Source: an uncultured Chloroflexia bacterium
GTDB taxonomy: Bacteria > Chloroflexota > Ktedonobacteria > Ktedonobacterales > Ktedonobacteraceae
Assembly (NCBI GenBank): GCA_963777355.1
Contig: CAVZQK010000020.1
Span: 1-64,000, forward strand
Length of the DNA stretch: 64,000 nt
Reading direction: 5' to 3'
The position numbers were made by a program, and so were the translations under genes. This document shows positions 19,747 to 59,222 of this stretch, in pieces; within the stretch, counting starts at the first letter, position 1, and each line of letters starts with the position of its first letter. Under the pieces are notes generated by a model. The model was not told the DNA's origin and did not search any database. It worked only from the letters and a program-made list of their open reading frames with translations.

Positions 19747-20265
19747 CTAGGGACCTCCTTATGATAGGGTGGTTATCCTCCGGGTCCATATCTTGCAGAT
19801 GTCACCAGTCGTTCTTTCCCCTACCAGCGTGGGATATGATAGCCTGGACGAGCACTGTATGCGAGACCGAGATTGGATACCGTTTGCAAGCATACACCAT
19901 CTTTTTCTGATTTGCAAGGGCTTTTGCGGGATTTACTGAGTAATAGCGATTATTTTTATGGATATTTTATATGGTGATTTTAGATGAGAAAAGTACTCAA
20001 AGATGCTGATTGTATCTCATCCCTAAATTCTTTTTTACATTGTCCATTTCTATTACACTCTTTATGCAGTTCCCATCACGCCTTCGTTGAAACCAACAAA
20101 CACGCCTTCGTTGAAACCAACAAAACGGCCTGGCTTGACGGTGGTGAGAAAATAAGCAGGAGAAAATTTTAGAATGTGTCTCAAGTTCGCTTGCTCTAAG
20201 CAATTTCTGTGCTCGCTCCAGACATATTCTGAGCGTTCGTTCTACATAATGCATCTGTTCAGTAA

Positions 20266-21459
<1,194 letters not shown>

Positions 21460-21498: not shown

Positions 21499-22325
21499 AT
21501 GGAGACAACACCCTATCGCTTTCTGACAACAGGCATACAGGATGCTGCAGTTAAATATGGCCATCGATGAGGCGATCCTGACGCATCATTTGCGCGACGA
21601 GGTCCCACCTACCTTGCGCGTCTTTCGCTGGTCCCAACCCGCTATCTCGCTGGGACGTTTCCAGAGCGTCGAACGCGAAATTGAGCAGGAGCTATGCACG
21701 CAGCAAGGCATCGCCCTGGTACAGGCGTCCAACTGGCGGCAGAGCCGTCTATCACCGCGATGAGTTCACCTATAGCATCGTCATCGGCAGACGCTATGGC
21801 ATACCTTCAGGCGTCGTAGCCGCTTATGCCTATCTCTCTCAAGGTATTCTGGCCGCCCTTCAGACGCTCGGTATACAAGCAGAGATCAGCGATGAACGTG
21901 TGAGCAAGCAGCCCTCAGCGGCCTGTTTTGCCTCCTCCACGCAGGCCGACCTGACGAGCGGCGGCTTCAAACTGGTTGGCAGCGCCCAGGTCTGGAAAGA
22001 TGATGCTCTTTTACAACAGGGCTCTCTGCCACTCGATGATCGCGCTGAAGAGTTTTTCGCCCTGCTGCGCTTTCCTTCCCCTGAAGCCCGACAAGAGGCG
22101 CTCAGACAGTATCGCGAGAAGACGACACCTCTCCATACCTTCTCTCCTGGCGCAAGCTGGGATGATGTGGCCTACGCTTTCCGTAGCGGATTTGCTCAGG
22201 CTTTCCAGCTGAATTTTGCACCCGGCGAACTCACCCCGTCAGAGTGGGATCTGGCCCGACAGCTTGTAGACGAAAAATATAGCAAGCTCAATTGGCGCAA
22301 AGAACGGATTTCTCTGCTAAAATAG
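21499..22325 (+). CDS. lipoate-protein ligase family protein (LplA/LipM-like BPL_LplA_LipB domain) with two frameshifts (~21551, ~21738)
   Basis: three frames give 'METTPYRFLTTGIQDAA', 'LNMAIDEAIL...GIALV', 'RRPTGGRAVYHRDE...FKLVGSAQ' (catalytic Lys motif). Confidence 0.7.
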
Positions 22326-22459
22326 GAGAGAAGAGATGGCTCTCTCTTCCTTGTCCATTCATACTATCTTGTGCAAAGGCTGTGCTATTATCCATTGCGT
22401 ACAAACAACAGGTGAGGTACAATGGGCCCGATGCATTGACCATCCGTTATATCAATACA

Positions 22460-24035: not shown

Positions 24036-26619
24036 TTAGATGAATGGGCTTTGCCACAATTTCCTCTCGCCTGTTGAGGATTGAAACATGAGGATTGAAA
24101 CAATCTTGATCGGTGCTTCCCCAAGCCCTTGCACATGAATGCGCTGCTCATCATCAGGAAGCATATCCAGCATATTATCGCTCCAGCTCAGCTCTTTATC
24201 GGCTGAGAAAAAAACCCCTTTGGCTGGACGCTTCACACGCACGCGTAAGATATCTTCTTCGTTGCGCTCGACAGTCAGATCGGGATCTTTCAAAGGCAGA
24301 TATTTTAAGGGTTCAGGCCAGTATGCAGCTCTTGCAAGGACCTCGTCATTTACCGAGTAAACGCATCCCAAAAATGATCTGCTCTCCCTGCCGCCCACTA
24401 CCAAAGTGCCCCAGTTCTGTAGCCTGGTTGGGTAAGAGCTCAACACGACGCAGCTCCTCCGCGACCAGTTTCCCATCCACTGTCCACGCACGCAGCTCCA
24501 TCTCAAACTGACGAGGTACGGTCAAGCCGTTCACTGCCCACGCTGCTACCCCCTGCTCGTCTTTTGCGAGACCGGCAACCAGGGGCGCGAGCTCTCGTTT
24601 GACGACATAATAGGCCGGTTTGGCACGCAGATAGTAATCAACCAGCGCCCAACTTGTCACAGGCCAGCAGTCATTCAATTGCCAGATGAGTGCTCCCGCT
24701 ACATACTCTCGCCCCTCACCCGACCAGCGCCTCCGCCAGCCGCGTATACCCGCACCCATTGCCTCTGCCTGCAAAAGCTGGAGTAATATAGGTGTATCCC
24801 TCCAGATCAGCAGGCATGCGGAAGTTCTCTACGACATATGCGGCTAATCGCGACGGACCACCAGCGCTTTTATTGTGATGGTCTAGCGTCCGGCTCTGGG
24901 CATAGCGCTCCTCCTCTGGCGTAAAAGGATTTCATCGTCCTTTTGTCAGGAAAGCCTTCCATGCCAAATTCGCTGACGAATTGCCCGGCAAACTTCGGGT
25001 AATCCTGGTACGGGACCATGCCATGCCAGATGGTCCAGATATGCTGGTCGCCAATCGTCAGGTTATTGGCATCGCTATCCGTACCCCCAAAGGGGCTGCT
25101 CGGCCAGTAGGGGCGCGTAGGATCATAGGAGCCACAAACATCTGGCAACACTTCTTCATAAAGAGCACGTGCCGGAAAAGCACTGGTTGCGAAATCTCCA
25201 GTAAAATCTGGGATCGTAGACATTGACAGACCTGGCAAGCAAGTAGTCTTCGTTATTTCCCGCCCAGATGACAATTGAGGGATGATGGCGTAGCCGTCTC
25301 ACATTGGCTATAGCTTCGGCCCGCACACTCGTCTGCATCCACTGGGGCGCGGGATAAAGTCCACAAGCAAACATAAAATCTTGCCAGACGAGTAGCCCCA
25401 GTTCGTCGCAGAGATCATAAAATACGTCTTCTTCATAGTATCCACCACCCCAGACCCGCAACATTGTCATGTTGCCCTCTGCCGCTAGCTCTAGCCAGCG
25501 ACGATACTTTTCAGCGGTAACACGCGGCCCAAATGAATCGGCAGGAATCCAGTTCGCCCCTCCGCAAAAAATTGGTGTGTTGTTGATCTCAAAAAAGAAT
25601 GTTTTCCCCGGTTCATCTAGCAGGGGACGCTGGATAAGTTGCAAACGGCGCAATCCTAAGCGCAGCTCCTGTCCTGTAAGCTCTCTCTCCCCATTACGCA
25701 AACTTACGACCAGGCGGTATAATGCCTGCTCCCCATACCCACGCGGCCACCAGAGCTGCGGTTGCTGAAGCTCGAATGTATGGGATAACGACGCAAGACT
25801 GGCTGGCAATATCGCTCGATCAACCAGCTTACCATCAGGACTATATACTTCCAGGTGCAGCGAGAGGCCGCTGGTGTGAATCTCACCATCCAGCAGTACC
25901 TGTACCGGCAGGAGTGCGCTCTCCAGATCTTCTACAACCTCAACTGGACAGTGGACCTCTACGATACGAGCGGCATAGGCCTCCAACCGCACTCCACGCC
26001 AGATACCAGCAGTTATTAGCGTCGGACCCCAATCCCAGCCATAATGATACTGCGCTTTCCTCACATAGAGACGACTACTATCTCCATTCCAGCAAGGATA
26101 AGATTTACCGGCCTCAGCCTCGCGCGTCTTGCCCTGCTGCCAGGCTGAGGCAAAATTTATGGTCAGCTCATTTTCTCCTGGCCGCAAAAGCCCGGTTACC
26201 TGCACTTGATGCGGCAGAAACATGTTCTCGCTTATGAGAATCTGCTGCTCATTCAACCATACGGTTGCAAACGTATCCAACCCATCAAAACAAAGGAGGA
26301 TATGTTCATCCAGGGAGAGGAAATCTTCTGGCAGGGTGAACTGGCAGCGGTATAGCCAGTCCTGCTCACCAACCCATTGCACCTCTTGTTCTTGTAATCC
26401 ATAAAATGGCTCAGGAATAAGCTCATGAGCCAGCAGATCCAGGTGCACACACCCAGGCACGCTGGCAGAGCGCCAATTCTCAGAGAATGCCAGATCATCC
26501 TTCAGGGAAAGAGCTGGAGTACGCTGTTTAAATTGCCAATGCTCGCTAAGATGCAGAATTTTCATCAGTGTGAGTTCAACGCCTTTCGTTTTAACAGCCG
26601 TGCTCTCACAATATACCAT
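24036..26619 (-). pseudogene. GH2 beta-mannosidase, fragmented into at least 4 ORFs by frameshifts
   Basis: N-terminal fragment has GH2 sugar-binding/TIM-barrel motifs incl. 'QPQLWWPRGYGEQALYRL' (beta-mannosidase signature); successive C-terminal fragments in other frames; 14-bp perfect tandem duplication at 24075-24102 inside coding sequence. Confidence 0.7.
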
Positions 26620-26699
26620 TGTTTTGACGAAGCTCGCATCTCATCGTTCCCTATTACCAGCTAACACCGACTCCAACACATTGCCAGGGGCAAAAGGGT

Positions 26700-33582: not shown

Positions 33583-34013
33583 CTATTCACGGCCACGATG
33601 ATAATGAACGGCAATGGGAAGCAGGAACAACACTGTACATGCAACAATATCCGGGTGGCTAGCTGGGCTCAGCAGAAGCTGATAACTACGGCTGTGAATA
33701 GCGAGATATACTTCTCAAACAAGATTGGTTGCTCTGCCGCCATGTACCGTGAAGAGAGTCAGCAGAACCAGGATACCTTTTGCCGTGACGCCTACGTAAA
33801 ATGCGAACGAGAGAGGAGGGGAAAAATAACGTCTGCGCCGCGTGCAATCCTCCTGTGTAAGAAATATCTTGTGTTGGCTGATATAAACAAGGTACCATTT
33901 TTTTCGCAAGAAAGCAACTGAGCAGGGCGGTTTTTTAATAAAAATTAACCTGCTCTCTAATTTTCTCTAATATAGCTTCCTCGGAAAGCTCTTACGGGTG
34001 CTTTAGACAAGAT

Positions 34014-35288
34014 TTAAGCACGCATAAGTTCGGCAACATAAGGCACTGTCACCGGCCCCTCTGGCAAGACGGCGATACGACTGTGGGGACCATACTGCTG
34101 GATGAGCGCATCGACAGTGGCCTGGAGATCCACCACAGGCAGAAGCTTCGCCGCAGATACCATCTCTTCAGGCAAGCTAGAATACAGATAGACGGTGGCA
34201 TGCAACTGTACAAGGACCTGCTTCTGCACCTGCCACTGATCGTTCATCTGGAATCCTGGCTCATTAATCAGTGTTAAAAGTTCACCAGGCGTCTCCCGCA
34301 TCTGAAGCAGGGTCTTATAATTGCCATGATTTGGTAGACCATCCCGGCATTCAGCTATCGCGACAATTGCTCCGCCAGGGCGTACAATCTGCGCCGCCGC
34401 AGTCATGCCTTTGACGGTCTGATACAGATTCTGGTCGAGCGGATAGCCATTGTTGCTTGTAATGACTATATCAAAAGGAGCCTCAACCGCTCGCGTTGCA
34501 CTCTGTCCCACCTGCTCACAGCCAACAAGATGCGCCGCCAGATAATCCCCTGCATAGACCCCTGTGATATGCCGCTCCTGGTCCAGTGTGACGTTCACCA
34601 TAAATTCTGGCGCGGCAAAGGCAACCGCCTCGCGAATCCCTTGCTGCACCGGATTCTCATCCATTACCGCCCAGGTTGACTGCGGATCTCCAATCAAAGG
34701 GGCATTATGCAGCGCCTGAATCGTCTCAATACCCGCAAGACCGGGTATAATACCTTTTGCCCCGCCAGAGAAACCGGCAAAAAAATGCGGCTCAATAAAA
34801 CCAGTCACAATACGGAAATCCGCTTCTAGATAGCGCTTATTCAACCAGACAGGCGCACCCGAAGCGAGCATACCAACCTGGGTCAGCGTCTCAGGAGCAA
34901 AGGCGTCATGATTCACAATCTCGACACTCTCAACGATCTCCTCACCCAGCATCCGAATCAGTTCTTCCCGCGTATTGGCCCGGTGCGAACCCGTCCCATT
35001 GAGAATCACAAACTGCCCACGAGGCACAAAAGCCAGCTCTTCCAACAACCAGGGAACCATTCTCTCATTCGGCGTTGGACGCGTAATATCTGAAATCACA
35101 ATAGCAACCCGGTCCGTAGCCCGCACGCGCCGCGCTAGAGGCTCACTGGCAATAGGATTGCGCAATGCTGTAAGAAAGGCTGTACGCTCATCCTTCAGAG
35201 GAACGACAGCTTGCGCACGAATAACGGTGGTCTGCTCCGGGAGCGTCAATGCCACCTGCGTACTTCCATAGGGAACAGCAATCTCCAT
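34014..35288 (-). CDS. LarA-family nickel-pincer-nucleotide dependent racemase/epimerase homolog (DUF2088 + C-terminal domain)
   Basis: 'VAIVISDITRPTP', 'ILNGTGSHR', overall 424 aa LarA architecture; no larB/C/E nearby. Confidence 0.65.
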   Translation of the reverse strand: MEIAVPYGSTQVALTLPEQTTVIRAQAVVPLKDERTAFLTALRNPIASEPLARRVRATDRVAIVISDITRPTPNERMVPWLLEELAFVPRGQFVILNGTGSHRANTREELIRMLGEEIVESVEIVNHDAFAPETLTQVGMLASGAPVWLNKRYLEADFRIVTGFIEPHFFAGFSGGAKGIIPGLAGIETIQALHNAPLIGDPQSTWAVMDENPVQQGIREAVAFAAPEFMVNVTLDQERHITGVYAGDYLAAHLVGCEQVGQSATRAVEAPFDIVITSNNGYPLDQNLYQTVKGMTAAAQIVRPGGAIVAIAECRDGLPNHGNYKTLLQMRETPGELLTLINEPGFQMNDQWQVQKQVLVQLHATVYLYSSLPEEMVSAAKLLPVVDLQATVDALIQQYGPHSRIAVLPEGPVTVPYVAELMRA

Positions 35289-35319
35289 AGTCGGGTCCTT
35301 CTTTCAGCCAGTTAAAAGC

Positions 35320-36216
35320 TTAACCTCCAAATTTATAGCGCTCTAGCCCCCTGAACTCGGTCCGCAGACGCAAGAGGTCGCCAGAGTAGGGATATTGCTT
35401 GAGCTGCTCTTCACTTAGATTGGCCGCTGAAGAGGTTATATACAGCTCGTTTAGCTTGGGTCCACCGAAAATACAACTGGTGGGACGAAGCGCCGCCACT
35501 TCAATGATACGCTCGATATTTCCCTGAGGATCATAACGCACAATCTTTGCACCATCCCAGCACGCACTCCAAATATATCCCTGCTCGTCCATACACAGAC
35601 CATCCGGCGAGCCCATCTCTTCGGCAGGAGAAACAAAAACACGGCGATTACTGAGCGTGCTATCGATAATAGAAAAATCATAGGCGTAGATTGTACGCGT
35701 CATCGAATCCGTGAAATACATCGTCCGGTTGTCAGGACTCCAGCCAATTCCGTTGGGAATCCCCACACCATGTTCCATCGCCTGCACAGAGCCATCTGGA
35801 TCAAGGCGATAGAGTGTCCCCACCTGTTTCTGCTGCCCTTCATCATCAAGCATAGAGCCTGCCCAGAAACGCCCCATACAATCAACCGCCCCATCGTTGA
35901 AACGCATGTAGGGCTTTCCCTCTTCGGGATTGACAAGAAACTTTATCTGACGCGTCTCCGGTTCCCAGAAAGCAAAACCCTGGCGTGTTGCCATAACAAT
36001 GCCACCAGAAGTACGCAGTGCCAGCACACCTATCGATACTCCCACATCAATCCGCTCATGCACACCCGTTGCAGGTACCAGACGCCAGAAGCACTGCTCA
36101 ACAATATCTACCCAGTAGAGCGCCTGCTCATCCACACTCCAGACTGGGCCCTCGCCCAGACGATTATGGACCGTCAAAACGCGTTCAACATTGCTCACTA
36201 TTGTACCTCCATACAA
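35320..36216 (-). CDS. SMP-30/gluconolactonase/LRE-like (regucalcin-family) beta-propeller lactonase
   Basis: 'GEGPVWSVDEQALYWVDI', 'FNDGAVDCMGRFW', 'PNGIGWSPDNRTMYFTDS' SGL repeats. Confidence 0.75.
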   Translation of the reverse strand: MYGGTIVSNVERVLTVHNRLGEGPVWSVDEQALYWVDIVEQCFWRLVPATGVHERIDVGVSIGVLALRTSGGIVMATRQGFAFWEPETRQIKFLVNPEEGKPYMRFNDGAVDCMGRFWAGSMLDDEGQQKQVGTLYRLDPDGSVQAMEHGVGIPNGIGWSPDNRTMYFTDSMTRTIYAYDFSIIDSTLSNRRVFVSPAEEMGSPDGLCMDEQGYIWSACWDGAKIVRYDPQGNIERIIEVAALRPTSCIFGGPKLNELYITSSAANLSEEQLKQYPYSGDLLRLRTEFRGLERYKFGG

Positions 36217-36285
36217 AATATTCGCGCTTATACGCTGAAATACATAGTTGGTTTACCAGGAGCAAGCTTCTCTCCAAGCCATACT

Positions 36286-36922
36286 TTATCCTTGAACACA
36301 GGCTTGTATATAACGTCTGGCCAGATCGGTAAGCGCCGACCAGTCTTTTCTCGCCACCAGTTCTTTCCCCACCAGTTGGCTACCAATAGCAACCGTATAA
36401 GCACCAGCCGCCAGAAAAGCCGCACAGTTCTCCAGATTGACACCGCCCGTAGGCACAAGAGGAATATTCGGCAGAGGGGCCAGCACATCTTTAATATAGC
36501 CAGGACCCAACTGCCCGGCAGGAAATACCTTTACCAGAGATGCCCCCTGACTCCAGGCTGCTAAAATCTCTGTCGGCGTAAAAGCGCCACAGACAACAGG
36601 AATATCATCCTTGCGTCCAACACGAATTACCTCAGGCAGCAGAGCAGGTGTCACCAGAAATTGTGCGCCCCCGCGAATCGATTCCTCAGCCATCGCTTCA
36701 TTCAGGACAGTGCCAGCACCTATCAACAACGTGTCAGCAAACTCTTTTCGCGCCTTCTCAATCACACTGATTGCCTGAGAATTTGTCAGCGTAAACTCCA
36801 ACACCGGTAATTCCACCTGCGAGCAGGGCCTCACAGAGATTCAGACTGTGCGCCAGTGACTCCAGGCGGATAATCGCAATCGGGTTGCGCGGTTGCAATC
36901 CAGAAACATTTTTCTCTACCAT
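36286..36922 (-). CDS. eda: KDPG/KHG aldolase with single-base frameshift near 36838
   Basis: 'GAGTVLN', 'VKVFPA', 'PTGGV' motifs; N-terminal 30 aa 'MVEKNVSGLQPRNPIAIIRLESLAHSLNLCEALLAGGI' is in a different frame and rejoins as 'PVLEFTLT' if one A is removed from ATTACCGG. Confidence 0.75.
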
Positions 36923-36950
36923 GATAATGGCGGCGCGGGTACCCCCAGTT

Positions 36951-38252
36951 TCAACAGGGGGAGGAAGCGCCGCCCTCCTTTCTGCGTTCTTCCAGACGGG
37001 GCTGCTGCGTGATCATCCAGCCGTGTGTGGGACGCGCTCTTCGTTCTACTTTGCCTGGGACCACCTCCAGCAGTTTCTTCCCACTCCTGACGTCTTTGAT
37101 GAGAAATGCACCTTTCTCTCGCCGTCCTGCGATGTAGCCGCTCTTCCCTTTCGCCTTGACCAGTTCGTAGAGCTTGAAGCCATGCACTTTGCGCGGAGAC
37201 CAACACTTGTGCTCACTGTGTCGCCCATTGAAGCGCTGATACTGCCCTCGTGGCAGACAACGGATCTGAAAAACGTTCGCCGATGGCTTCACCCTTTCAC
37301 CGATCTCGCAAGCAATGGCCACCGCATCGTTGCTGTGGGACTTCGGTAGGGCAAGCACCTGAATCCGTTGGTATTTTGTCTGATACCCAAACCTAATGCG
37401 TACCTGCTCCTCCCCAAACTGCCCTCGAAGGTGTCCCACAACAGCGGTCTTGATCGAGGAGACATGGGCTGCATCTTTGAGCGGCACGCGAGCCTGTGCC
37501 TGGATCGCGGGGAAACCAAACTCAGCGGCGGTTTGGGTTCCTTTTTTGCGATTACAGGGTTCACACGCCAGGGTGAGATTGCAGACGCGATCACTGCCGC
37601 CTCTCGCTTTGGGAAGGATATGTTCTAGTTGCAGGGGGATGCCCGTCGCCTGACAGTAGGCGCACCGCCGCTGCCACTTCGCCAGCACATATTCACGCAC
37701 CAGATACCCCTGCAACTCCCCCTGTTGATAGGACACCCCCGTAATCTCCGGGTGCTGCATCTTCTGGGTATCGAAACTGCCAATTTCCACATTGACCTGC
37801 TTCACCGGCAGCAGTGAGGCCACAAACCGCACCGCCTTGACCGTGGAGTCTGCTTTCGCGCGTAAGGAAGGTGGTAACCACCCGGCTTTGCGGCGACGAT
37901 TGGCCCATCGCGGCGCACGATAGCGCGTCTTGCGACTTCGACGCGTGTGCCGATAGTGCCGTCGCTGTGTCATCTTCTTGGTGATATCATCACGCAGATG
38001 CACCTCGGCTTGCAAGACCACCGCACCATTGGTGAGAGCGGCGATCCCCACTCCTTTTGAGCCGGTATCCACTCCCACGCTGACCGCCTGGGTGTAGGAG
38101 GGGGTCTGGAAGCGGAGGCGAATAGTGAAAGGCTCACGACTGATGAGACGAGCCTGACGCGTGCGCAGCCAATACCACACTTTCTTCTGCCGCCTGGTGG
38201 GCATGAGAGGCTGCCCTTCGCTATTTTGCACGTAGATGATGGATTGCTCCAT
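36951..38252 (-). CDS. iscB: IscB (OMEGA RNA-guided endonuclease; PLMP-RuvC-BH-HNH-RuvC architecture)
   Basis: N-terminal 'GQPLMPT' (PLMP), RuvC-I 'VGVDTGSKGVGIAAL', Arg-rich bridge helix 'RRHYRHTRRSRKTRYRAPRWANRRRK', RuvC-II 'VNVEIGSFD', HNH 'CAYCQ...LEHILPKARGGSDRVCNLTLACEPCNRKKG', RuvC-III 'KSHSNDAVAIA'; 433 aa. Confidence 0.85.
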   Translation of the reverse strand: MEQSIIYVQNSEGQPLMPTRRQKKVWYWLRTRQARLISREPFTIRLRFQTPSYTQAVSVGVDTGSKGVGIAALTNGAVVLQAEVHLRDDITKKMTQRRHYRHTRRSRKTRYRAPRWANRRRKAGWLPPSLRAKADSTVKAVRFVASLLPVKQVNVEIGSFDTQKMQHPEITGVSYQQGELQGYLVREYVLAKWQRRCAYCQATGIPLQLEHILPKARGGSDRVCNLTLACEPCNRKKGTQTAAEFGFPAIQAQARVPLKDAAHVSSIKTAVVGHLRGQFGEEQVRIRFGYQTKYQRIQVLALPKSHSNDAVAIACEIGERVKPSANVFQIRCLPRGQYQRFNGRHSEHKCWSPRKVHGFKLYELVKAKGKSGYIAGRREKGAFLIKDVRSGKKLLEVVPGKVERRARPTHGWMITQQPRLEERRKEGGASSPC

Positions 38253-38600
38253 AAATCTTCCTTTCGGAGTGAAACGTTCCCCTCGACAAAGATGAGCAGG
38301 CGGGACATGGCCTCTTCACGGTGGCTGACCTCACCACGGTTAAAAGAGACCTTCCAGTGCTGGAAACTGAGGCAGCATTTCCAGGTGGGAGCTTGACCGC
38401 TTCCTGCTATCGTAGTTCTCTCCTCGAACGACAAGACGCACGCTTGCTCGACTTGTCGTTCTCAAGAACTGAGTCTGGTCAATCCGGCTTGCACGGGGCG
38501 AACCCCTCACAAGCCTCCCCACTCTGTGGGGAGGTCATTGACCTCTTCTGTCCTTTATAATCGCTCGCAATCTATTATACCTTCCCACTTTCTCCAGACT
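38253..38600 (-). ncRNA. candidate IscB omega-RNA scaffold (structured GC-rich region directly upstream of iscB, same strand)
   Basis: multiple strong hairpins (GAACGACAAG/CTTGTCGTTC, CCTCCCCA/TGGGGAGG, GGGG/CCCC) and no credible ORF; position matches known IscB-omegaRNA arrangement. Confidence 0.5.
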
Positions 38601-38764
38601 CAAGCGCCCACCTCAAGAGGGATGAGGCAATACCCTCACGTTTGCTCCACATTTCTCGTTCGCGATATGATGAATATATCTAGCCACCTGTCCGGCTCAT
38701 ATATAGCGTAATCTTGAGATGGCTGTGAGAGTGCGTAGATGGCAAAAAGAAAGGAACTCTCTCT

Positions 38765-39766
38765 ATGTCTAGCGATATTGTAAGTTTTGGCGAAACCATG
38801 CTGCGTCTCACTGCTTCCAGCGACCACAGACTCGAAACAACGCCGCTGCTCCATATCTCCGTTGCAGGAACAGAATCAAATACGCTCGCGTGTCTGGCCC
38901 GGCTCAACTTTCATGTCAAATGGCTTTCAGCCTTACCTGCAACCCCTTTAGGAAAACATATAGAGACCGAGCTAAAACGACATGGCATTGATACCAGCAA
39001 TATAGTCTGGAGTGCAAACACAGCGCGGGTGGGGACCTTTTATGCCGAAGAAGGACCCGCTCCCCTGGGCATTCAAGTCTATTATGACCGCGCCAATTCG
39101 GCCTGCGCATTGATCGATCCTGATGCAATAGACTACAGCATTATCGATACTACCCGCTGTCTTCATCTCACGGGCATTACACCAGCTCTGAGCGAAAACG
39201 CACGTGAGGTATTTCAGCGCTTCCTCGCTCATGCTCGCCAACACCAGATTCCGCTCTCTTTTGACGTCAACTATCGGGCCAAACTCTGGTCTACGCAAGA
39301 AGCCGCAAAACAGCTTGAAGCCGCCTGCCGCCAGGCAGCAATTCTCTTCTGTACCCGTGCCGATGCCGCCGAGATCTGGGGCTTCCAGGGCACGCCGGAG
39401 GAGACGTTACAACAGATGGCGGAGCACTTTACAAGCGAGAATCCCTATAAGACGCTGGTCCTGACCCTGGGTAGCGCAGGCTCAGCTCATTTGCAGCATG
39501 GAACATATCTCCACGCACCAGCCATTCCTACAGAAGGTAGAGCACGCTTCGGCTCAGGGGATGCCTTCTCAGCCGGCTATCTCTACGCCTACTTCAACGG
39601 TCCCCTCTATCAGGAGATCAAGCAGGCATACGCTGATAGTAATCCACTGCTGTTCGGCAACGCCCTGGCGGCCCTGAAGCGCTGTATCCCCGGCGATATC
39701 GCTATCATTACTCCCGACGACGTGCGAGCCCTGTTTCAGCGCCAGGAAGGCCAGCGTTTCCGCTAG
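38765..39766 (+). CDS. kdgK: 2-dehydro-3-deoxygluconokinase-like PfkB kinase
   Basis: 'FGETMLRL', 'GTESNTLACLARL', C-terminal 'GSGDAFSAGYL' PfkB motif; divergent eda nearby. Confidence 0.7.
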   Translation: MSSDIVSFGETMLRLTASSDHRLETTPLLHISVAGTESNTLACLARLNFHVKWLSALPATPLGKHIETELKRHGIDTSNIVWSANTARVGTFYAEEGPAPLGIQVYYDRANSACALIDPDAIDYSIIDTTRCLHLTGITPALSENAREVFQRFLAHARQHQIPLSFDVNYRAKLWSTQEAAKQLEAACRQAAILFCTRADAAEIWGFQGTPEETLQQMAEHFTSENPYKTLVLTLGSAGSAHLQHGTYLHAPAIPTEGRARFGSGDAFSAGYLYAYFNGPLYQEIKQAYADSNPLLFGNALAALKRCIPGDIAIITPDDVRALFQRQEGQRFR

Positions 39767-39961
39767 CCTCACACGAATGACAAAATAGTACTCTTTGTTA
39801 TAAATTTTCTTTTTCTTCTCGCTCATTTCTTTACAAAGGGCATAGTTAAAGGCGTCCAGGCCTCACACTGTTATCATTTCTGCTAATTCTCGTCAATATA
39901 AATAAAAGAATGAGAATATCCTCAACATTTAATAGATATATGTAAGGAAAGGGCCCACAAG

Positions 39962-41102
39962 ATGAATATTCTTTTTTCTTCATCTGACTCTGATGAAACT
40001 GAACCACGCTTGCCTAGTGTCTTGCTAAATGAACACGATCCCACTGAAAAAGTTCCGCTGGTAGAACTTACTCAGAGAGACCCCGATCTGCCAGAGGATA
40101 ATTTTGCTTCGGCGGCTCATTTCCAGGCCGCCTTATCACCAGATATATCTACTATGCCAACATTACCAGAAATCATTCCAGATATTTCTATGCAGCCAAC
40201 ATTGGCAGGTGCCTATCCGGATATTTCTACGCTACCAACATCGGCAGGTGCCTATCCAAATCTTCCAGCGAAACTCTCTGCACCAGTTATATCAACCATG
40301 TTCAGTGGCGCACCACCCCCGCCTCAACCACTATCCGAAGGTCCATTTGAGTGGTATAAGCACCAGGACCCAGGTAAAAGACTGTGGCTTGGCGGTGGTG
40401 CAATAGCGCTCTTATTAACCATCATTGGCTATCTTTTTTTGCTAGTAGCCCTTAATCACGTTCCTGCCCCGACTATCGTCACACCCTATGCAACTCCAGC
40501 TATAACATCAATAAAACATCTAACATCTACACCAACTAGCCCTTTTATTGGACTTATTCCTGTTACTCCTACACAAGGACCAGCGAACACCTCAATACCC
40601 ACGCAGATCACAACACCATCGGCCAATCCTACCCAACCACCCTCTAATCCTACTCAACCACCTACTCATCCTACTCCAACCGCCCTCTGATCCTACCCAA
40701 CCACCTTCTGATCCTACCCAACCACCTTCTGAGCCTACCCAACCGCCTACTCACTCTACTCATCCGAAACCACCTGAGCCTACCCAACCACCCGACCTAC
40801 CCAGCCACCTGAGCCTACTCAGCCGCCCGCAAACCGACACCTACACCGATACCTACGCCTATTCCGACACCTACACCGGTCACAGGCATTAATGGTAATC
40901 CCTGGGGCTATGATTTTAATCCCGGAATGTACATTACCCATCCGCCTCCGGCATTTTGTTCTTACTTTTCCTGCACAAGAGACTTCTATTTCGGGCATGG
41001 CTACGTTGTGGAATGTACCGATAGCAAATTTAGCCTCTGGGGCGGTTCAAGATTTGCCTGCTTCTGGGATGGAGGAGTTGTGACTCCCCTCTATTCACAT
41101 TA
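39962..41102 (+). CDS. hypothetical single-pass membrane protein with Pro/Thr-rich 'PTQPPS' repeat linker and conserved Cys-containing C-terminal domain; two frameshifts inside the repeat (~40685, ~40795)
   Basis: three consecutive frames encode N-terminal+TM, (PTQPPS)n repeats, then 'NGNPWGYDFNPGMYITHPPPAFCSYFSCTRDFYFGHGYVVECTDSKFSLWGGSRFACFWDGG'. Confidence 0.5.
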
Positions 41103-41142
41103 ATTTTCGGTTGCTCTTTATAAGCAAACGAGCAAGCAAGCA

Positions 41143-41571
41143 TTAAGAGACTGAGATTCCTTTTACATGCACCATCGTTTTTACTAAGTGCAATAAAGCG
41201 GCCTCTGGATCTTTACAGAGGCCGCTATGTGTCGGCGAGGTCTGAATGATCGTGCTACGCGGTGCCACAAGCCAGTGGAAGCGCTCAGATTGCGAAAGTT
41301 CTCCAATCACACCAGAACGAGTCCCCCCCTCACACACGCGCTCAAAATGGTCAAGGTGCTCTCGAATCAGGGCAACATCACTATCTGGAGCAATAGCTAA
41401 CAAGCGTTGTATATCCAGGTGAATCACTGATCTCAGGAAGCGGCGTGTACGGCAAAACAAGATTACCCCAACGTTAAGACATTCACCACGCTCTATTGAG
41501 GGGATAATACGAATAAGAGCATAATCATATGAGCTGAGCGCGTGCATGTACAGCTTCCTCCACAAAAACAT
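41143..41571 (-). CDS. small DUF3037-like protein
   Basis: 'YALIRIIPSIERGECLNVGVILF' resembles DUF3037 N-terminal motif; overlaps upstream HipA-like gene by ~47 bp. Confidence 0.4.
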   Translation of the reverse strand: MFLWRKLYMHALSSYDYALIRIIPSIERGECLNVGVILFCRTRRFLRSVIHLDIQRLLAIAPDSDVALIREHLDHFERVCEGGTRSGVIGELSQSERFHWLVAPRSTIIQTSPTHSGLCKDPEAALLHLVKTMVHVKGISVS

Positions 41572-42310
41572 GAGAATGCTCCAGGCGATCCTGGAAGTAC
41601 GCTACATAGGCTAATCGATGGGCTGCACTATCCACAAAATGGGGGGTATTCTCTTCAAGCCAGCTATCCGGAATCAGATGAACGATATCTTGCAGGACAG
41701 AAAGGGATAAACGGCTCTTGAGCAGCGTATCAACCTCCTCCAGCGCACTCGCTACAGGCAGCAGGACATGGCCTTTAATCGAAGTAAACGAGATACGGCT
41801 GCGCTCAAGGTAGTCGCCCTCAATATGATGAAAATAGAGAGCAGCCCCCTGATCGATGAGCAGCAGACGATTATGCCACCAGAGCATGTTCGTATTGCGA
41901 GGTGTCCGATCAACATTGGTGACAAAGGCGTCAAACCAGACAATGGACGAGGCTAGCAGAGGATCAAGCTTATAGGCATCCAGAGCATCAAAAGCTATCG
42001 CACCGGGAAGGTAGTCTAGCGCCAGGTTGAGACCAGCGCTCGCCTTAATCAATGCCTGAATCTCAAAATCTGGTTCAGAACGTCCAAGCAGAGGATCAAG
42101 CTCGATAAAGACTATCTCAGGCACCGGCAGATCCAGGGCACGCGCCAGTTCACCGGCAACCAGCTCGGCAATCAACGCCTTCGGCCCCTGGCCCGCTCCG
42201 CGAAATTTTAGCACATACAGCCCATCATCATCTGCCTCAACGATAGCCGGAAGCGACCCCCCCTCACGAAGAGGCGTCACATAGCGTGTAGCAGTAAGTG
42301 TTCTCAGCAT
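41525..42310 (-). CDS. HipA-like C-terminal kinase-domain protein (no HipA N-terminal domain)
   Basis: 'VLKFRGAGQGPKA' P-loop-like, 'DAFVTNVDRTPRNTNMLWW' catalytic-loop-like and 'IDQG' DFG-like motif. Confidence 0.5.
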   Translation of the reverse strand: MLRTLTATRYVTPLREGGSLPAIVEADDDGLYVLKFRGAGQGPKALIAELVAGELARALDLPVPEIVFIELDPLLGRSEPDFEIQALIKASAGLNLALDYLPGAIAFDALDAYKLDPLLASSIVWFDAFVTNVDRTPRNTNMLWWHNRLLLIDQGAALYFHHIEGDYLERSRISFTSIKGHVLLPVASALEEVDTLLKSRLSLSVLQDIVHLIPDSWLEENTPHFVDSAAHRLAYVAYFQDRLEHSHVFVEEAVHARAQLI

Positions 42311-57882: not shown

Positions 57883-57998
57883 CTTATCACGCTCTCGCCG
57901 GATGTTGTCTCTCCTACAAAGGAAGGTGGTCACGGTACTAGAAAAGATATTTCGTACAAGGATTGTGTAGCAGCAATACGAAAAGATGGAGTATTTGG

Positions 57999-58773
57999 AT
58001 GACAGAATACCAGTATATCCTCGTCGAACGTGCTGAAAATGTTGGCATCGTGACGCTCAATCGCCCTAAAGAACTTAATGCTTTGAGTATGGCGCTGATA
58101 AAAGAGCTGGCCGACGCGCTGGAGGATTTTGATCGCGATGATGCGGTCCATTGTATTATTATCACGGGTTCAGGTGAAAAGGCGTTTGCCGCGGGAGCGG
58201 ATATCAAGGAGATGTCGGGAAAACTCCGATAGAGATGTTTATGGGCGACGGCGAGGCCTGGGGACGTATCCGCCGCCTCCATACACCCCTGATTGCCGCT
58301 GTGAATGGTTACGCTTTGGGCGGCGGCTGTGAACTCGCTCTGCATTGCGATATGATTGTGGCCTCAGAAAACGCTCGCTTTGGCCAGCCTGAAATACTCA
58401 TCGGCATAATTCCGGGCGCTGGTGGTACCCAAAGACTTGCCCGCGTCCTCGGTAAATATCGCACAATGGAGATGGTCCTCACAGGCGCACAGGTCACAGC
58501 CCAGGAACTCGCAAGCCTGGGACTCGTCAACCGCGTCGTCCCCAAAGGCGAACACCTGCACGAAGCCCTGAAACTTGCGCAAACAGTAGCGCCCAGGCCC
58601 CCCTCGCCGCCCGCATGGCCAAAGAGGCTGTCCTCGCCGCCTTTGAAACCTCCCTCGAAGAGGGACTGGAGGCCGAGCGCAAAAACTTCTTCCTGCTCTT
58701 CTCTACCGAAGATATGCGCGAAGGGATGCGAGCCTTTATCGAAAAACGCAAACCCGACTTCAAAGGCAAATAA
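57999..58773 (+). CDS. enoyl-CoA hydratase/isomerase (crotonase) with two frameshifts (~58225, ~58590)
   Basis: '[18 protein letters not shown]', '[50 protein letters not shown]', then '[17 protein letters not shown]' in third frame. Confidence 0.75.
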
Positions 58774-59222
58774 CCCTATCGTTTTCCTTCTCCCTCTTAG
58801 ACCCTTATATCGGTTATTGTCCGTAAAACGCGTATCGTTGTCAATCCCTAGCAAAATTCTTCTCTCTCTTAGGAACTCTCGAAGAATAAAATATCCGAGA
58901 GGCGATGGTGAACTGGCGTTTTGGAAGAAGACAAAGCTCATCTTTCAAAACGCATTTCTCTTGACACAGAATACTCTTTAGGGCTAAAATAAAGCACATT
59001 ACGCAAAGGAGGACTACTCTCATGAATACGACTTTTGCTTGCTTCGACCTTATGGAAGGTGTATTGGCTTAGTCAGAGGCGAAAATGATTCCCAGTTCTC
59101 CGGCTTTGCTCCCGTGAAAAGGCCGGTTTGCCACTGCTCTGTGCATGCTTCTCATGTACCTCTGTCTGCCACTCCTTCCCCTCAGCTTTGCTGTTCCACT
59201 TTTCTTGTGAAAAGGAGTGACT

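Follow-up and report, generated by a model that had tools for sequence, protein, structure and literature searches.

A probable ISC2-1_KR-like IscB/omega-RNA element at the eda start codon in an uncultured Ktedonobacteria genome

The element between eda and kdgK

The DNA analyzed here is a stretch of 64,000 nucleotides (nt) from an uncultured Chloroflexia bacterium of the family Ktedonobacteraceae (GenBank assembly GCA_963777355.1, contig CAVZQK010000020.1, positions 1 to 64,000 of the forward strand), hereafter referred to as the window. Within it, eda and kdgK, which encode the KDPG (2-keto-3-deoxy-6-phosphogluconate) aldolase and a 2-keto-3-deoxygluconate kinase, are oriented divergently, and an iscB gene lies between them on the eda strand, directly preceded by a structured RNA (Table 1). 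The segment that holds iscB and this RNA carries no other gene, and it very probably represents a single intact, non-autonomous ISC element that resembles ISC2-1_KR of Ktedonobacter racemifer and has been inserted without target duplication 5′ of ATGG(T) at the start of eda. The locus is a further copy of a well-known kind of element, namely, the ISC/IscB-omega-RNA elements of the Ktedonobacter ISC2-1 family.

An original prediction, made from the letters of the DNA alone, had described the 433-amino-acid (aa) protein as an IscB carrying the hallmarks of this family in order, and Pfam, solved structures and motif positions all agree with that description. The profile of RRXRR (PF14239) is matched in its entirety (1-174 of 174; E value, 1.2e-58), the RRXRR/RuvC-I/bridge-helix module forming the N-terminal 178 residues, and three HNH Pfam families match residues 197-246. 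From the N terminus, the protein shows the PLMP motif (residues 15-18), RuvC-I (VGVDTGS, catalytic D62), an Arg-rich bridge helix (residues 97-122), RuvC-II (VNVEIGSFD, catalytic E156), HNH (LEH/CNRKKG, H211, and two CxxC pairs) and RuvC-III (KSHSNDA, H306 and D309), so that the HNH domain is placed between RuvC-II and RuvC-III. The same order, ending in a C-terminal domain, is found in OgeuIscB and the solved complexes (PDB 7XHT, 7UTN, 8CSZ, 9K30, and 9K2Z), with which the catalytic residues align (D/E/H/H..D, including E156, H211, H306, and D309 of the window protein). Among the solved structures, TbaIscB was matched first (2.7e-42), followed by OgeuIscB (about 5e-33) and then by IsrB, and Cas9 structures were matched more weakly and over the HNH/RuvC core only. 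The window protein differs from the solved IscBs in its distance from them (E values of about 1e-33 to 1e-42) and in its length, OgeuIscB having 496 aa. It is compact and has no REC lobe, and its close relatives are of similar size (416-450 aa). By homology with characterized members of the IscB family, which is ancestral to Cas9, it is predicted to be an RNA-guided nuclease that would cleave DNA in a TAM (transposon/target-adjacent motif)-dependent manner.

The protein search yielded 5,734 homologues, several of which are titled "RNA-guided endonuclease IscB" and come from Ktedonobacter or other Chloroflexota. The closest proteins are encoded by a Chloroflexota metagenome-assembled genome (MAG; 79% identity) and by K. 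racemifer (73%). The ratio of nonsynonymous to synonymous substitution rates (dN/dS), determined against seven relatives, falls between 0.13 and 0.19, and these values indicated that IscB evolves under purifying selection. There is no CRISPR array in 34000..42000, where the neighbors are LarA, SGL, eda, and kdgK, with no adaptation genes among them.

Rfam identified the region upstream of iscB as HEARO (RF02033), with 94.1 bits (gathering score, 83) and an E value of 3.9e-19 for 38271..38542; the match spans the whole model (1-211 of 211) and is the only Rfam match in the 64-kb window. Both profile searches suggested along with the original prediction, the Pfam search for the protein and the covariance search for the RNA, thus gave positive results. 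The same RNA was present directly 5′ of iscB in 16 fetched relatives, and an alignment of 16 close copies contains 79 consensus pairs, 44 of which show compensatory double changes. HEARO RNA is said to have been reported by Weinberg et al. in 2009. It was later shown to be the omega-RNA of IscB (Meers et al. 2023, bioRxiv 10.1101/2023.03.14.532601; review PMC13565253), and the window RNA shows no substantive difference from the Rfam family, being a full-length match above the gathering threshold that stands directly 5′ of an HNH/IscB open reading frame (ORF). HEARO ends 18 nt from the iscB ATG, and these last 18 nt of the scaffold region hold the iscB Shine-Dalgarno sequence (GAAAGGAAG). Since the Rfam model is reported to lack the 3′-most structural elements (Meers et al. 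2023, bioRxiv 10.1101/2023.03.14.532601), the functional scaffold probably reaches as far as the start of iscB. At its other end, it is shorter than had been thought: the structured RNA itself was correctly foreseen, but the proposed length of about 350 nt was too great, as the scaffold comprises 290 nt, and the rest, up to 38700, is host DNA. This host DNA comprises the eda 5′ untranslated region (5′UTR) and promoter.

The boundaries of the element were determined by aligning the window with other copies, 34 copies at 25 distinct sites in all, from K. racemifer, Ktedonobacter robiniae, several Chloroflexota MAGs, and metagenomes. Homology among the copies sets in abruptly at GTCAATGACC, where the scaffold begins (window position 38542), and the sequence 5′ of this point is unrelated from copy to copy. 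Past the IscB stop codon, a conserved hairpin is followed by some 10 nt of variable linker, and homology then ends just before an invariant ATGG. In the iscB orientation, the element thus reads 5′-GTCAATGACC ... CCGCCATTATC-3′. Terminal inverted repeats are absent, and each end forms a subterminal hairpin on the top strand of the transposon. The left-end hairpin encodes, on the other strand, the C terminus and the stop codon of IscB and is conserved in all copies; the right-end hairpin doubles, on the other strand, as the first hairpin of the omega-RNA and is also conserved across copies. Because iscB is the only gene and the element has no TnpA, it was regarded as non-autonomous, in keeping with the original prediction and as is usual for iscB, which is found near a tnpA in only about 1.5% of cases and is non-autonomous in the other 98.5% or so (Meers et al. 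2023, bioRxiv 10.1101/2023.03.14.532601).

Table 1. Features of the eda-kdgK locus in window coordinates
Feature	Coordinates	Strand	Basis or remark
eda, KDPG aldolase; split from its own Shine-Dalgarno sequence by the element; +1 frameshift	36286..36922	minus	
TAM, ATGGT; its ATG (36922..36920) is the eda start codon	36918..36922	minus	Empty sites and copies
Whole ISC element, 1,620 bp, IS200/IS605 type, non-autonomous (very probable)	36923..38542	minus	Homology of 34 copies and in silico excision
Left-end subterminal hairpin, GGCGGCGC...GCGCCGCC, with nested CCCCC/GGGGG stem	36929..36974	plus	DNA fold, -17.1 kcal/mol, z = -2.96
iscB coding sequence, 433 aa, intact, TGA stop included	36951..38252	minus	ORF, Pfam, homologues of solved structure
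omega-RNA scaffold, 290 nt	38253..38542	minus	Rfam HEARO and covariation
Right-end subterminal hairpin, CCTCCCCAC...GTGGGGAGG	38510..38540	plus	DNA fold, z = -3.44; pairs covary
Predicted guide segment, eda 5′UTR including the Shine-Dalgarno sequence AAGGA; 5′ limit inferred from the promoter	38543..38567	minus	Empty-site alignment
Sigma-70-like eda promoter, TTGAGT-18-TATAAT	38574..38603	minus	Promoter scan; -10 conserved in empty sites L115 and L116
kdgK, PfkB 2-keto-3-deoxygluconate kinase, intact divergent neighbor outside the element	38765..39766	plus	Pfam and orthologues

The nearest described element is ISC2-1_KR of K. racemifer, which is 1,594 bp long and has the termini GTCA...ATGG (Kapitonov, Makarova & Koonin 2016, PMC4810608). 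The two have in common the host class, a content of iscB only, a size of about 1.6 kb, the absence of terminal inverted repeats and target site duplications, and the termini 5′-GTCA ... ATGG-3′, and the IscB copies of K. racemifer are 73% identical to that of the window. They differ in that the window comes from another, uncultured Ktedonobacteria genome, with its best overall match (79%) in a Chloroflexota MAG, and in the insertion point, which is considered below. KraIscB-1, also of K. racemifer, belongs to the same genus-level neighborhood and protein family and is an RNA-guided, TAM-dependent double-stranded DNA nuclease according to the account of Altae-Tran et al. 2021 given in PMC11610941. 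As described there, KraIscB-1 is associated with a CRISPR array and uses the TAM ATAAA, whereas the window copy has no array, a guide that would derive from its flank, and a TAM of the ATGG type.

Insertion point, guide, and promoter

The origin of the junctions became clear from loci that lack the element. The closest kdgK orthologues were found in two uncultured relatives (77-78% identity) and in Reticulibacter mediterranei (66%). All three contigs share the gene order of the window, LarA-SGL-eda<- ->kdgK ... DUF3037/HipA_2, and at each of the three syntenic loci eda encodes a protein of 209-210 aa and IscB is absent; the predicted insertion between eda and kdgK, for which a comparison with relatives had been proposed, was thereby corroborated. 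Deleting 36923..38542 in silico yielded ...GGAAGGTATAATAGATT..GCGAGCGATTATAAAGGACAGAAGAG/ATGGTAGAGAAA (the slash marks the junction here and below), and the excised window is colinear with the empty sites, such that the -10 box TATAAT, the Shine-Dalgarno sequence AAAGGA, and the eda ATG are all aligned (empty-site loci L115 and L116). The element thus separates the ribosome-binding site of eda from its start codon, and no bases are duplicated.

A K. robiniae copy at a gene of the Crp family, for which three uninterrupted orthologous loci were available, served as a second, independent comparison of filled and empty sites (...GGAATAGCG/ATGGAGGCAG in the filled site versus ...GGAAATAGCGATGGAGGCAG). 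No bases are duplicated after excision at either the eda sites (L115-L117) or the Crp sites (L118-L120), and the junction reads ATGG or ATGC in 6/6 empty sites. As ATG stands at the junction in all six, we placed the insertion point at N/ATGG(A), in agreement with the TAM model of Meers et al. 2023. The GT/GG junction inferred earlier for ISC2-1_KR (Kapitonov 2016, PMC4810608) was therefore rejected, and the junction of the ISC2-1_KR-like family is corrected from GT/GG to N/ATGG(A).

Across the family, the flanking motif is highly uniform: 24/25 distinct sites carry ATGGA (TCCAT on the top strand of the transposon), and the ATGGT of the window is the sole exception. In the case of GstIscB and its element ISGst (Geobacillus stearothermophilus), the TAM is common to TnpA and IscB and reads TTCAT (= ATGAA in the iscB orientation) (Meers et al. 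2023, bioRxiv 10.1101/2023.03.14.532601). It abuts the left end and resembles the TCCAT (= ATGGA) of the window family, from which it differs at one position. GstIscB is a distant protein whose activity has been shown, whereas the window element is known from its sequence. The TAM of OgeuIscB is NWRRNA, unlike ATGGA.

The 25 nt or so that separate the promoter from the scaffold are the eda 5′UTR. On the basis of the sequence, the guide is predicted to be this 5′UTR of eda itself, which lies outside the element, and its last 16 nt read ATAAAGGACAGAAGAG. The flanks thus give the eda 5′UTR as the candidate guide and ATGGT as the TAM. A scan of 36700..38900 yielded no promoter-like site besides that of eda, which precedes the scaffold by about 30 nt and is suitably placed to transcribe the guide, the omega-RNA, and iscB. 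An equivalent layout has been described for GstIscB, where the scaffold is bounded by the right end of the element, the guide lies outside it, and transcription has to begin outside (Meers et al. 2023, bioRxiv 10.1101/2023.03.14.532601); ISGst is likewise non-autonomous. The locus therefore offers an unusually clean natural example, in which the host 5′UTR would serve as the guide, the sole promoter is that of the host, and the TAM is a start codon.

Elsewhere in the 64-kb window, the guide is not matched exactly, and the near-matches carry 3 mismatches and all fall in other Shine-Dalgarno regions. The nearest of them, AAATAGGAGAGAAGAG followed by ATGGC at 22320..22339 (plus strand; 3 mismatches), consists of the Shine-Dalgarno sequence and ATGG start of another gene. 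It probably reflects the general similarity of Shine-Dalgarno regions, and it is the type of site that could be open to off-target or secondary insertion.

Start codons as insertion sites

The position of the element at eda led us to the boundary ATG of the other copies. After in silico excision, a boundary ATG was scored as start-like if it opens an ORF of at least 80 codons and is preceded by an in-frame stop within 30 codons, and control ATGG sites were taken from the same flanks as the insertion sites. By this measure, the boundary ATG stands at the 5′ end of an ORF in 11/19 scorable sites versus 47/682 control sites (6.9%; p = 2e-8). Overall, a host start codon stands at the boundary in 11-14/21 sites. 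A stricter criterion that allows no in-frame ATG, GTG, or TTG upstream was dropped (3/21 observed versus 6/152 controls), since chance GTG and TTG codons occur in short leaders and make it too harsh. These ORFs have genuine N termini according to Pfam, the domains of which start at or near residue 1: Crp, SufU/NifU_N (twice), ScpB, a zf-HC2 anti-sigma factor, GyrA, HIT, GNATs, an ATP-grasp ligase, and HTH proteins. The Crp orthologues are 228-229 aa long, which equals the length of the ORF opened by the boundary ATG. In addition, a Shine-Dalgarno-like motif precedes the junction in 9/21 sites versus 15% of controls. When the criterion was later extended to a null with three classes (intragenic, intergenic, and start codon), intragenic sites proved strongly depleted (p = 9e-8).

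A comparable tendency is seen among more distant IscBs of Proteobacteria, Cyanobacteria, and other Chloroflexota (36-47% identity): a co-oriented ORF begins at ATG[A/G] no more than 90 nt past the IscB stop in 14/25 cases, versus 23% in a random-position control. Those with a host ORF beginning at ATGA or ATGG include L014, L015, L016, L020, L021, L059, L062, L068, L069, and L077, and the hosts with a start codon in this position include Chromatium, a cyanobacterium, and Paraburkholderia. The start-codon habit may thus be general to HEARO/IscB elements. We reasoned that copies gather at start codons because the TAM contains ATG, because intragenic insertions are lost, and because a guide can be made only from an insertion that lies in sense orientation behind a promoter; surviving copies accordingly share the orientation of the host gene.

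An adjacency to start codons was not found described in Meers et al. 2023, in Kapitonov et al. 2016 (PMC4810608), or in a full-text literature search. What Meers et al. report is a bias in orientation with respect to the upstream gene (bioRxiv 10.1101/2023.03.14.532601), not an insertion at the start codon of the downstream gene. If start-codon-precise, co-oriented insertion holds genome-wide, it would account for the way in which guide transcription is secured and add precision to the orientation bias already published, and the question would arise of how the downstream, sometimes essential, gene stays translated. By itself, the window enlarges a well-sampled family by one IscB/omega-RNA pair, the TAM of which is probably of the ATGGA type, and this is of little consequence.

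Three individual cases were recorded in the course of this comparison. The start codon of SufU/NifU_N is occupied by two different IscB copies, at L005:4315-4737 (a Chloroflexia MAG) and L043:2824-3225 (a soil metagenome), which could reflect either an old inherited insertion or repeated, possibly guided, insertion at the same gene. At L045:2821-4287, gyrA harbors an IscB copy at its start codon together with a LAGLIDADG intein, i.e., two selfish elements in one essential gene. A perfect TATAAT is located 7 nt upstream of the 5′ end of the element at L040:1190-1212 (…GTGCTATAATGGCGCT/GTCAATG), and the omega-RNA would be almost guideless there if the host gene is leaderless.

Expression of eda, alternative explanations, and neighboring genes

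By analogy with GstIscB, OgeuIscB, and KraIscB, a sequence of events can be proposed for the window element. The eda promoter would transcribe the guide, the scaffold, and iscB, and transcription would probably continue into eda. IscB would bind the scaffold to form an RNA-guided nuclease whose target would be ATAAAGGACAGAAGAG followed by an ATGGA-type TAM, that is, the unoccupied eda site, and the occupied site would be spared, with GTCAA standing where the TAM would be. A Y1 TnpA acting in trans would excise the element, the rejoined donor site would then be cut, and recombination with the sister copy would restore the element.

How eda would be expressed after insertion is a related matter, as its Shine-Dalgarno sequence is now 1.6 kb from its ATG. 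The IscB stop is located 27-30 nt before the host ATG in 21/25 copies, and 28 nt before it at eda. In the predicted RNA fold, this stop lies near the apex of the strong left-end hairpin, the 3′ arm of which ends 6 nt before the eda AUG. It may be speculated that the translation of eda is coupled to the termination of ribosomes at the IscB stop inside this hairpin. The downstream host genes at other copies, among them the essential genes gyrA, scpB, and sufU, are intact, indicating that insertion at a start codon is tolerated. We tentatively entertain the broader possibility that IscB/HEARO elements are "5′UTR parasites" of the junction between ribosome-binding site and ATG, for which the TAM (ATGGA or ATGA) amounts to a start codon, the host promoter and 5′UTR give the guide, and the host gene becomes the last cistron of a transcript of guide, omega-RNA, iscB, and host gene, its translation maybe coupled to that of IscB; no account of such a lifestyle was found in the literature searched. 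If this held true, the expression of IscB and the production of the guide would be wired to the regulation of the host gene, and a translational dependency would be imposed on that gene.

Several observations weigh against an intact, mobile element with these habits. The window TAM is ATGGT, and ATGGC, ATGGC, and ATGCC stand at the empty eda sites; this non-consensus motif, be it original or mutated later, may bar both excision and self-targeting of the window copy. There is a single copy of the element in the 64-kb window, and no Y1 (HUH) TnpA was found in the element or among the window ORFs, which were searched by regular expression (every ORF of 90 aa or more) and by Pfam (most small non-overlapping ORFs, 19997..20287 excepted). 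The proposed cleavage and homing by the window IscB are derived wholly from homology. Regarding the start-codon pattern, part of the enrichment is simple survivorship: among non-disruptive sites, the excess of start codons is modest (11:4 observed versus 44:63 in controls; p = 0.019), although this test is conservative, because three of the "intragenic" sites are Pfam-verified N termini. In the last 16 nt of the element, no conserved Shine-Dalgarno sequence was detected in the copies compared. Lastly, eda itself, which starts at 36922 (MVEKNVSGLQPRNPIAIIRLES...), has one extra base in ACCGG (36804..36808) relative to its three orthologues.

Some of these points would also suit an IscB that has been domesticated or immobilized, i.e., fixed at eda, retained by the host as, for example, a regulator of eda-kdgK or a defense nuclease, and no longer transposing. 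The original prediction had called the element "possibly domesticated", and the lack of TnpA in the window, a TAM that departs from the ATGGA of 24/24 other sites and could block excision, the purifying selection on IscB, and the position inside the expression signals of a metabolic gene are all compatible with this. Nevertheless, none of the three closest syntenic genomes carries the element, which is thus a lineage-specific insertion. Both end hairpins and the full scaffold are intact, the architecture being indistinguishable from that of mobile copies, and the nuclease residues are kept, unlike those of the nuclease-dead domesticated TnpB (TldR) mentioned in PMC13565253; neither the catalytic loss nor the syntenic retention of TldR-like domesticated OMEGA proteins was thus observed. 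A missing tnpA nearby is the norm for iscB genes, and mobile copies are also expected to be under purifying selection. We therefore consider domestication improbable and did not retain that part of the original prediction.

Even less probable, in our view, is a decaying remnant, in which the insertion cut eda off from its ribosome-binding site, a frameshift followed, and the locus is now being lost, with IscB perhaps inactive despite its open frame. The distance of eda from its Shine-Dalgarno sequence, with none at the end of the element, and the +1 frameshift relative to three orthologues would fit such a course. The frameshift (36806/36807) had been noticed in the original prediction and is indeed present in the sequence, but it lies 116 nt from the end of the element rather than about 90 bp. 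After removal of one base, eda encodes a 211-aa protein with 79% identity to the closest orthologue, as compared with 77-86% for the intact neighbors, so that no extra decay is evident, and host genes are intact at other copies. Three unrelated window genes (tgt, a beta-mannosidase gene, and an enoyl-CoA hydratase gene) together contain at least 7 other frameshifts, giving, with that of eda, about 8 per 64 kb, and this load suggests an error-prone assembly or a pseudogene-rich genome. Since these genes are also broken, and since the repaired Eda is as conserved as its neighbors, a link between frameshift and insertion, as originally suspected, was rejected; the eda lesion is probably either an assembly error or one case of a general phenomenon, unrelated to the insertion of IscB.

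A third alternative, in which an HNH homing endonuclease or a McrA-like restriction enzyme would stand alone behind a GC-rich leader unrelated to it, was refuted. Many homologues are labeled "5-methylcytosine-specific restriction endonuclease McrA" (Joint Genome Institute), and HNH Pfam families do match, but HNH accounts for residues 197-246 only, with the RRXRR N terminus before it and RuvC-II and RuvC-III on either side, the protein matches IscB structures, and the leader matches HEARO over the full model and shows covariation. Neither a plain HNH match nor the lack of an omega-RNA homologue, the two findings that would have spoken against the original prediction, was thus encountered, and a single non-autonomous ISC element remains by far the preferred reading of 36923..38542.

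The other frameshifted genes of the window are as follows. The tgt gene (20278..21459, plus strand) is split, with Pfam TGT 3-193 and 250-355 in two ORFs and a middle segment, which contains GVGSPEDLV, in a third frame; its two frameshifts are near 20895 and 21050. A gene for a beta-mannosidase-like protein of glycoside hydrolase family 2 (GH2; 24039..26640, minus strand) is represented by overlapping frame fragments, at least four or five in number (25159-26640, 24873-25298, 24719-24931, 24349-24828, and 24039-24521), and contains at least four frameshifts. One frameshift divides the gene for an enoyl-CoA hydratase (57942..58978, plus strand), leaving 96 aa of the N terminus in one part and an open frame of 267 aa in the other. 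Beyond kdgK, an ORF at 39962..40892 (plus strand), for which no Pfam annotation was found, encodes a Pro/Thr-rich protein with PTQPPS-like units; it is built of tandem 21-nt and 64-nt repeats and has an extreme negative GC skew of -0.7.

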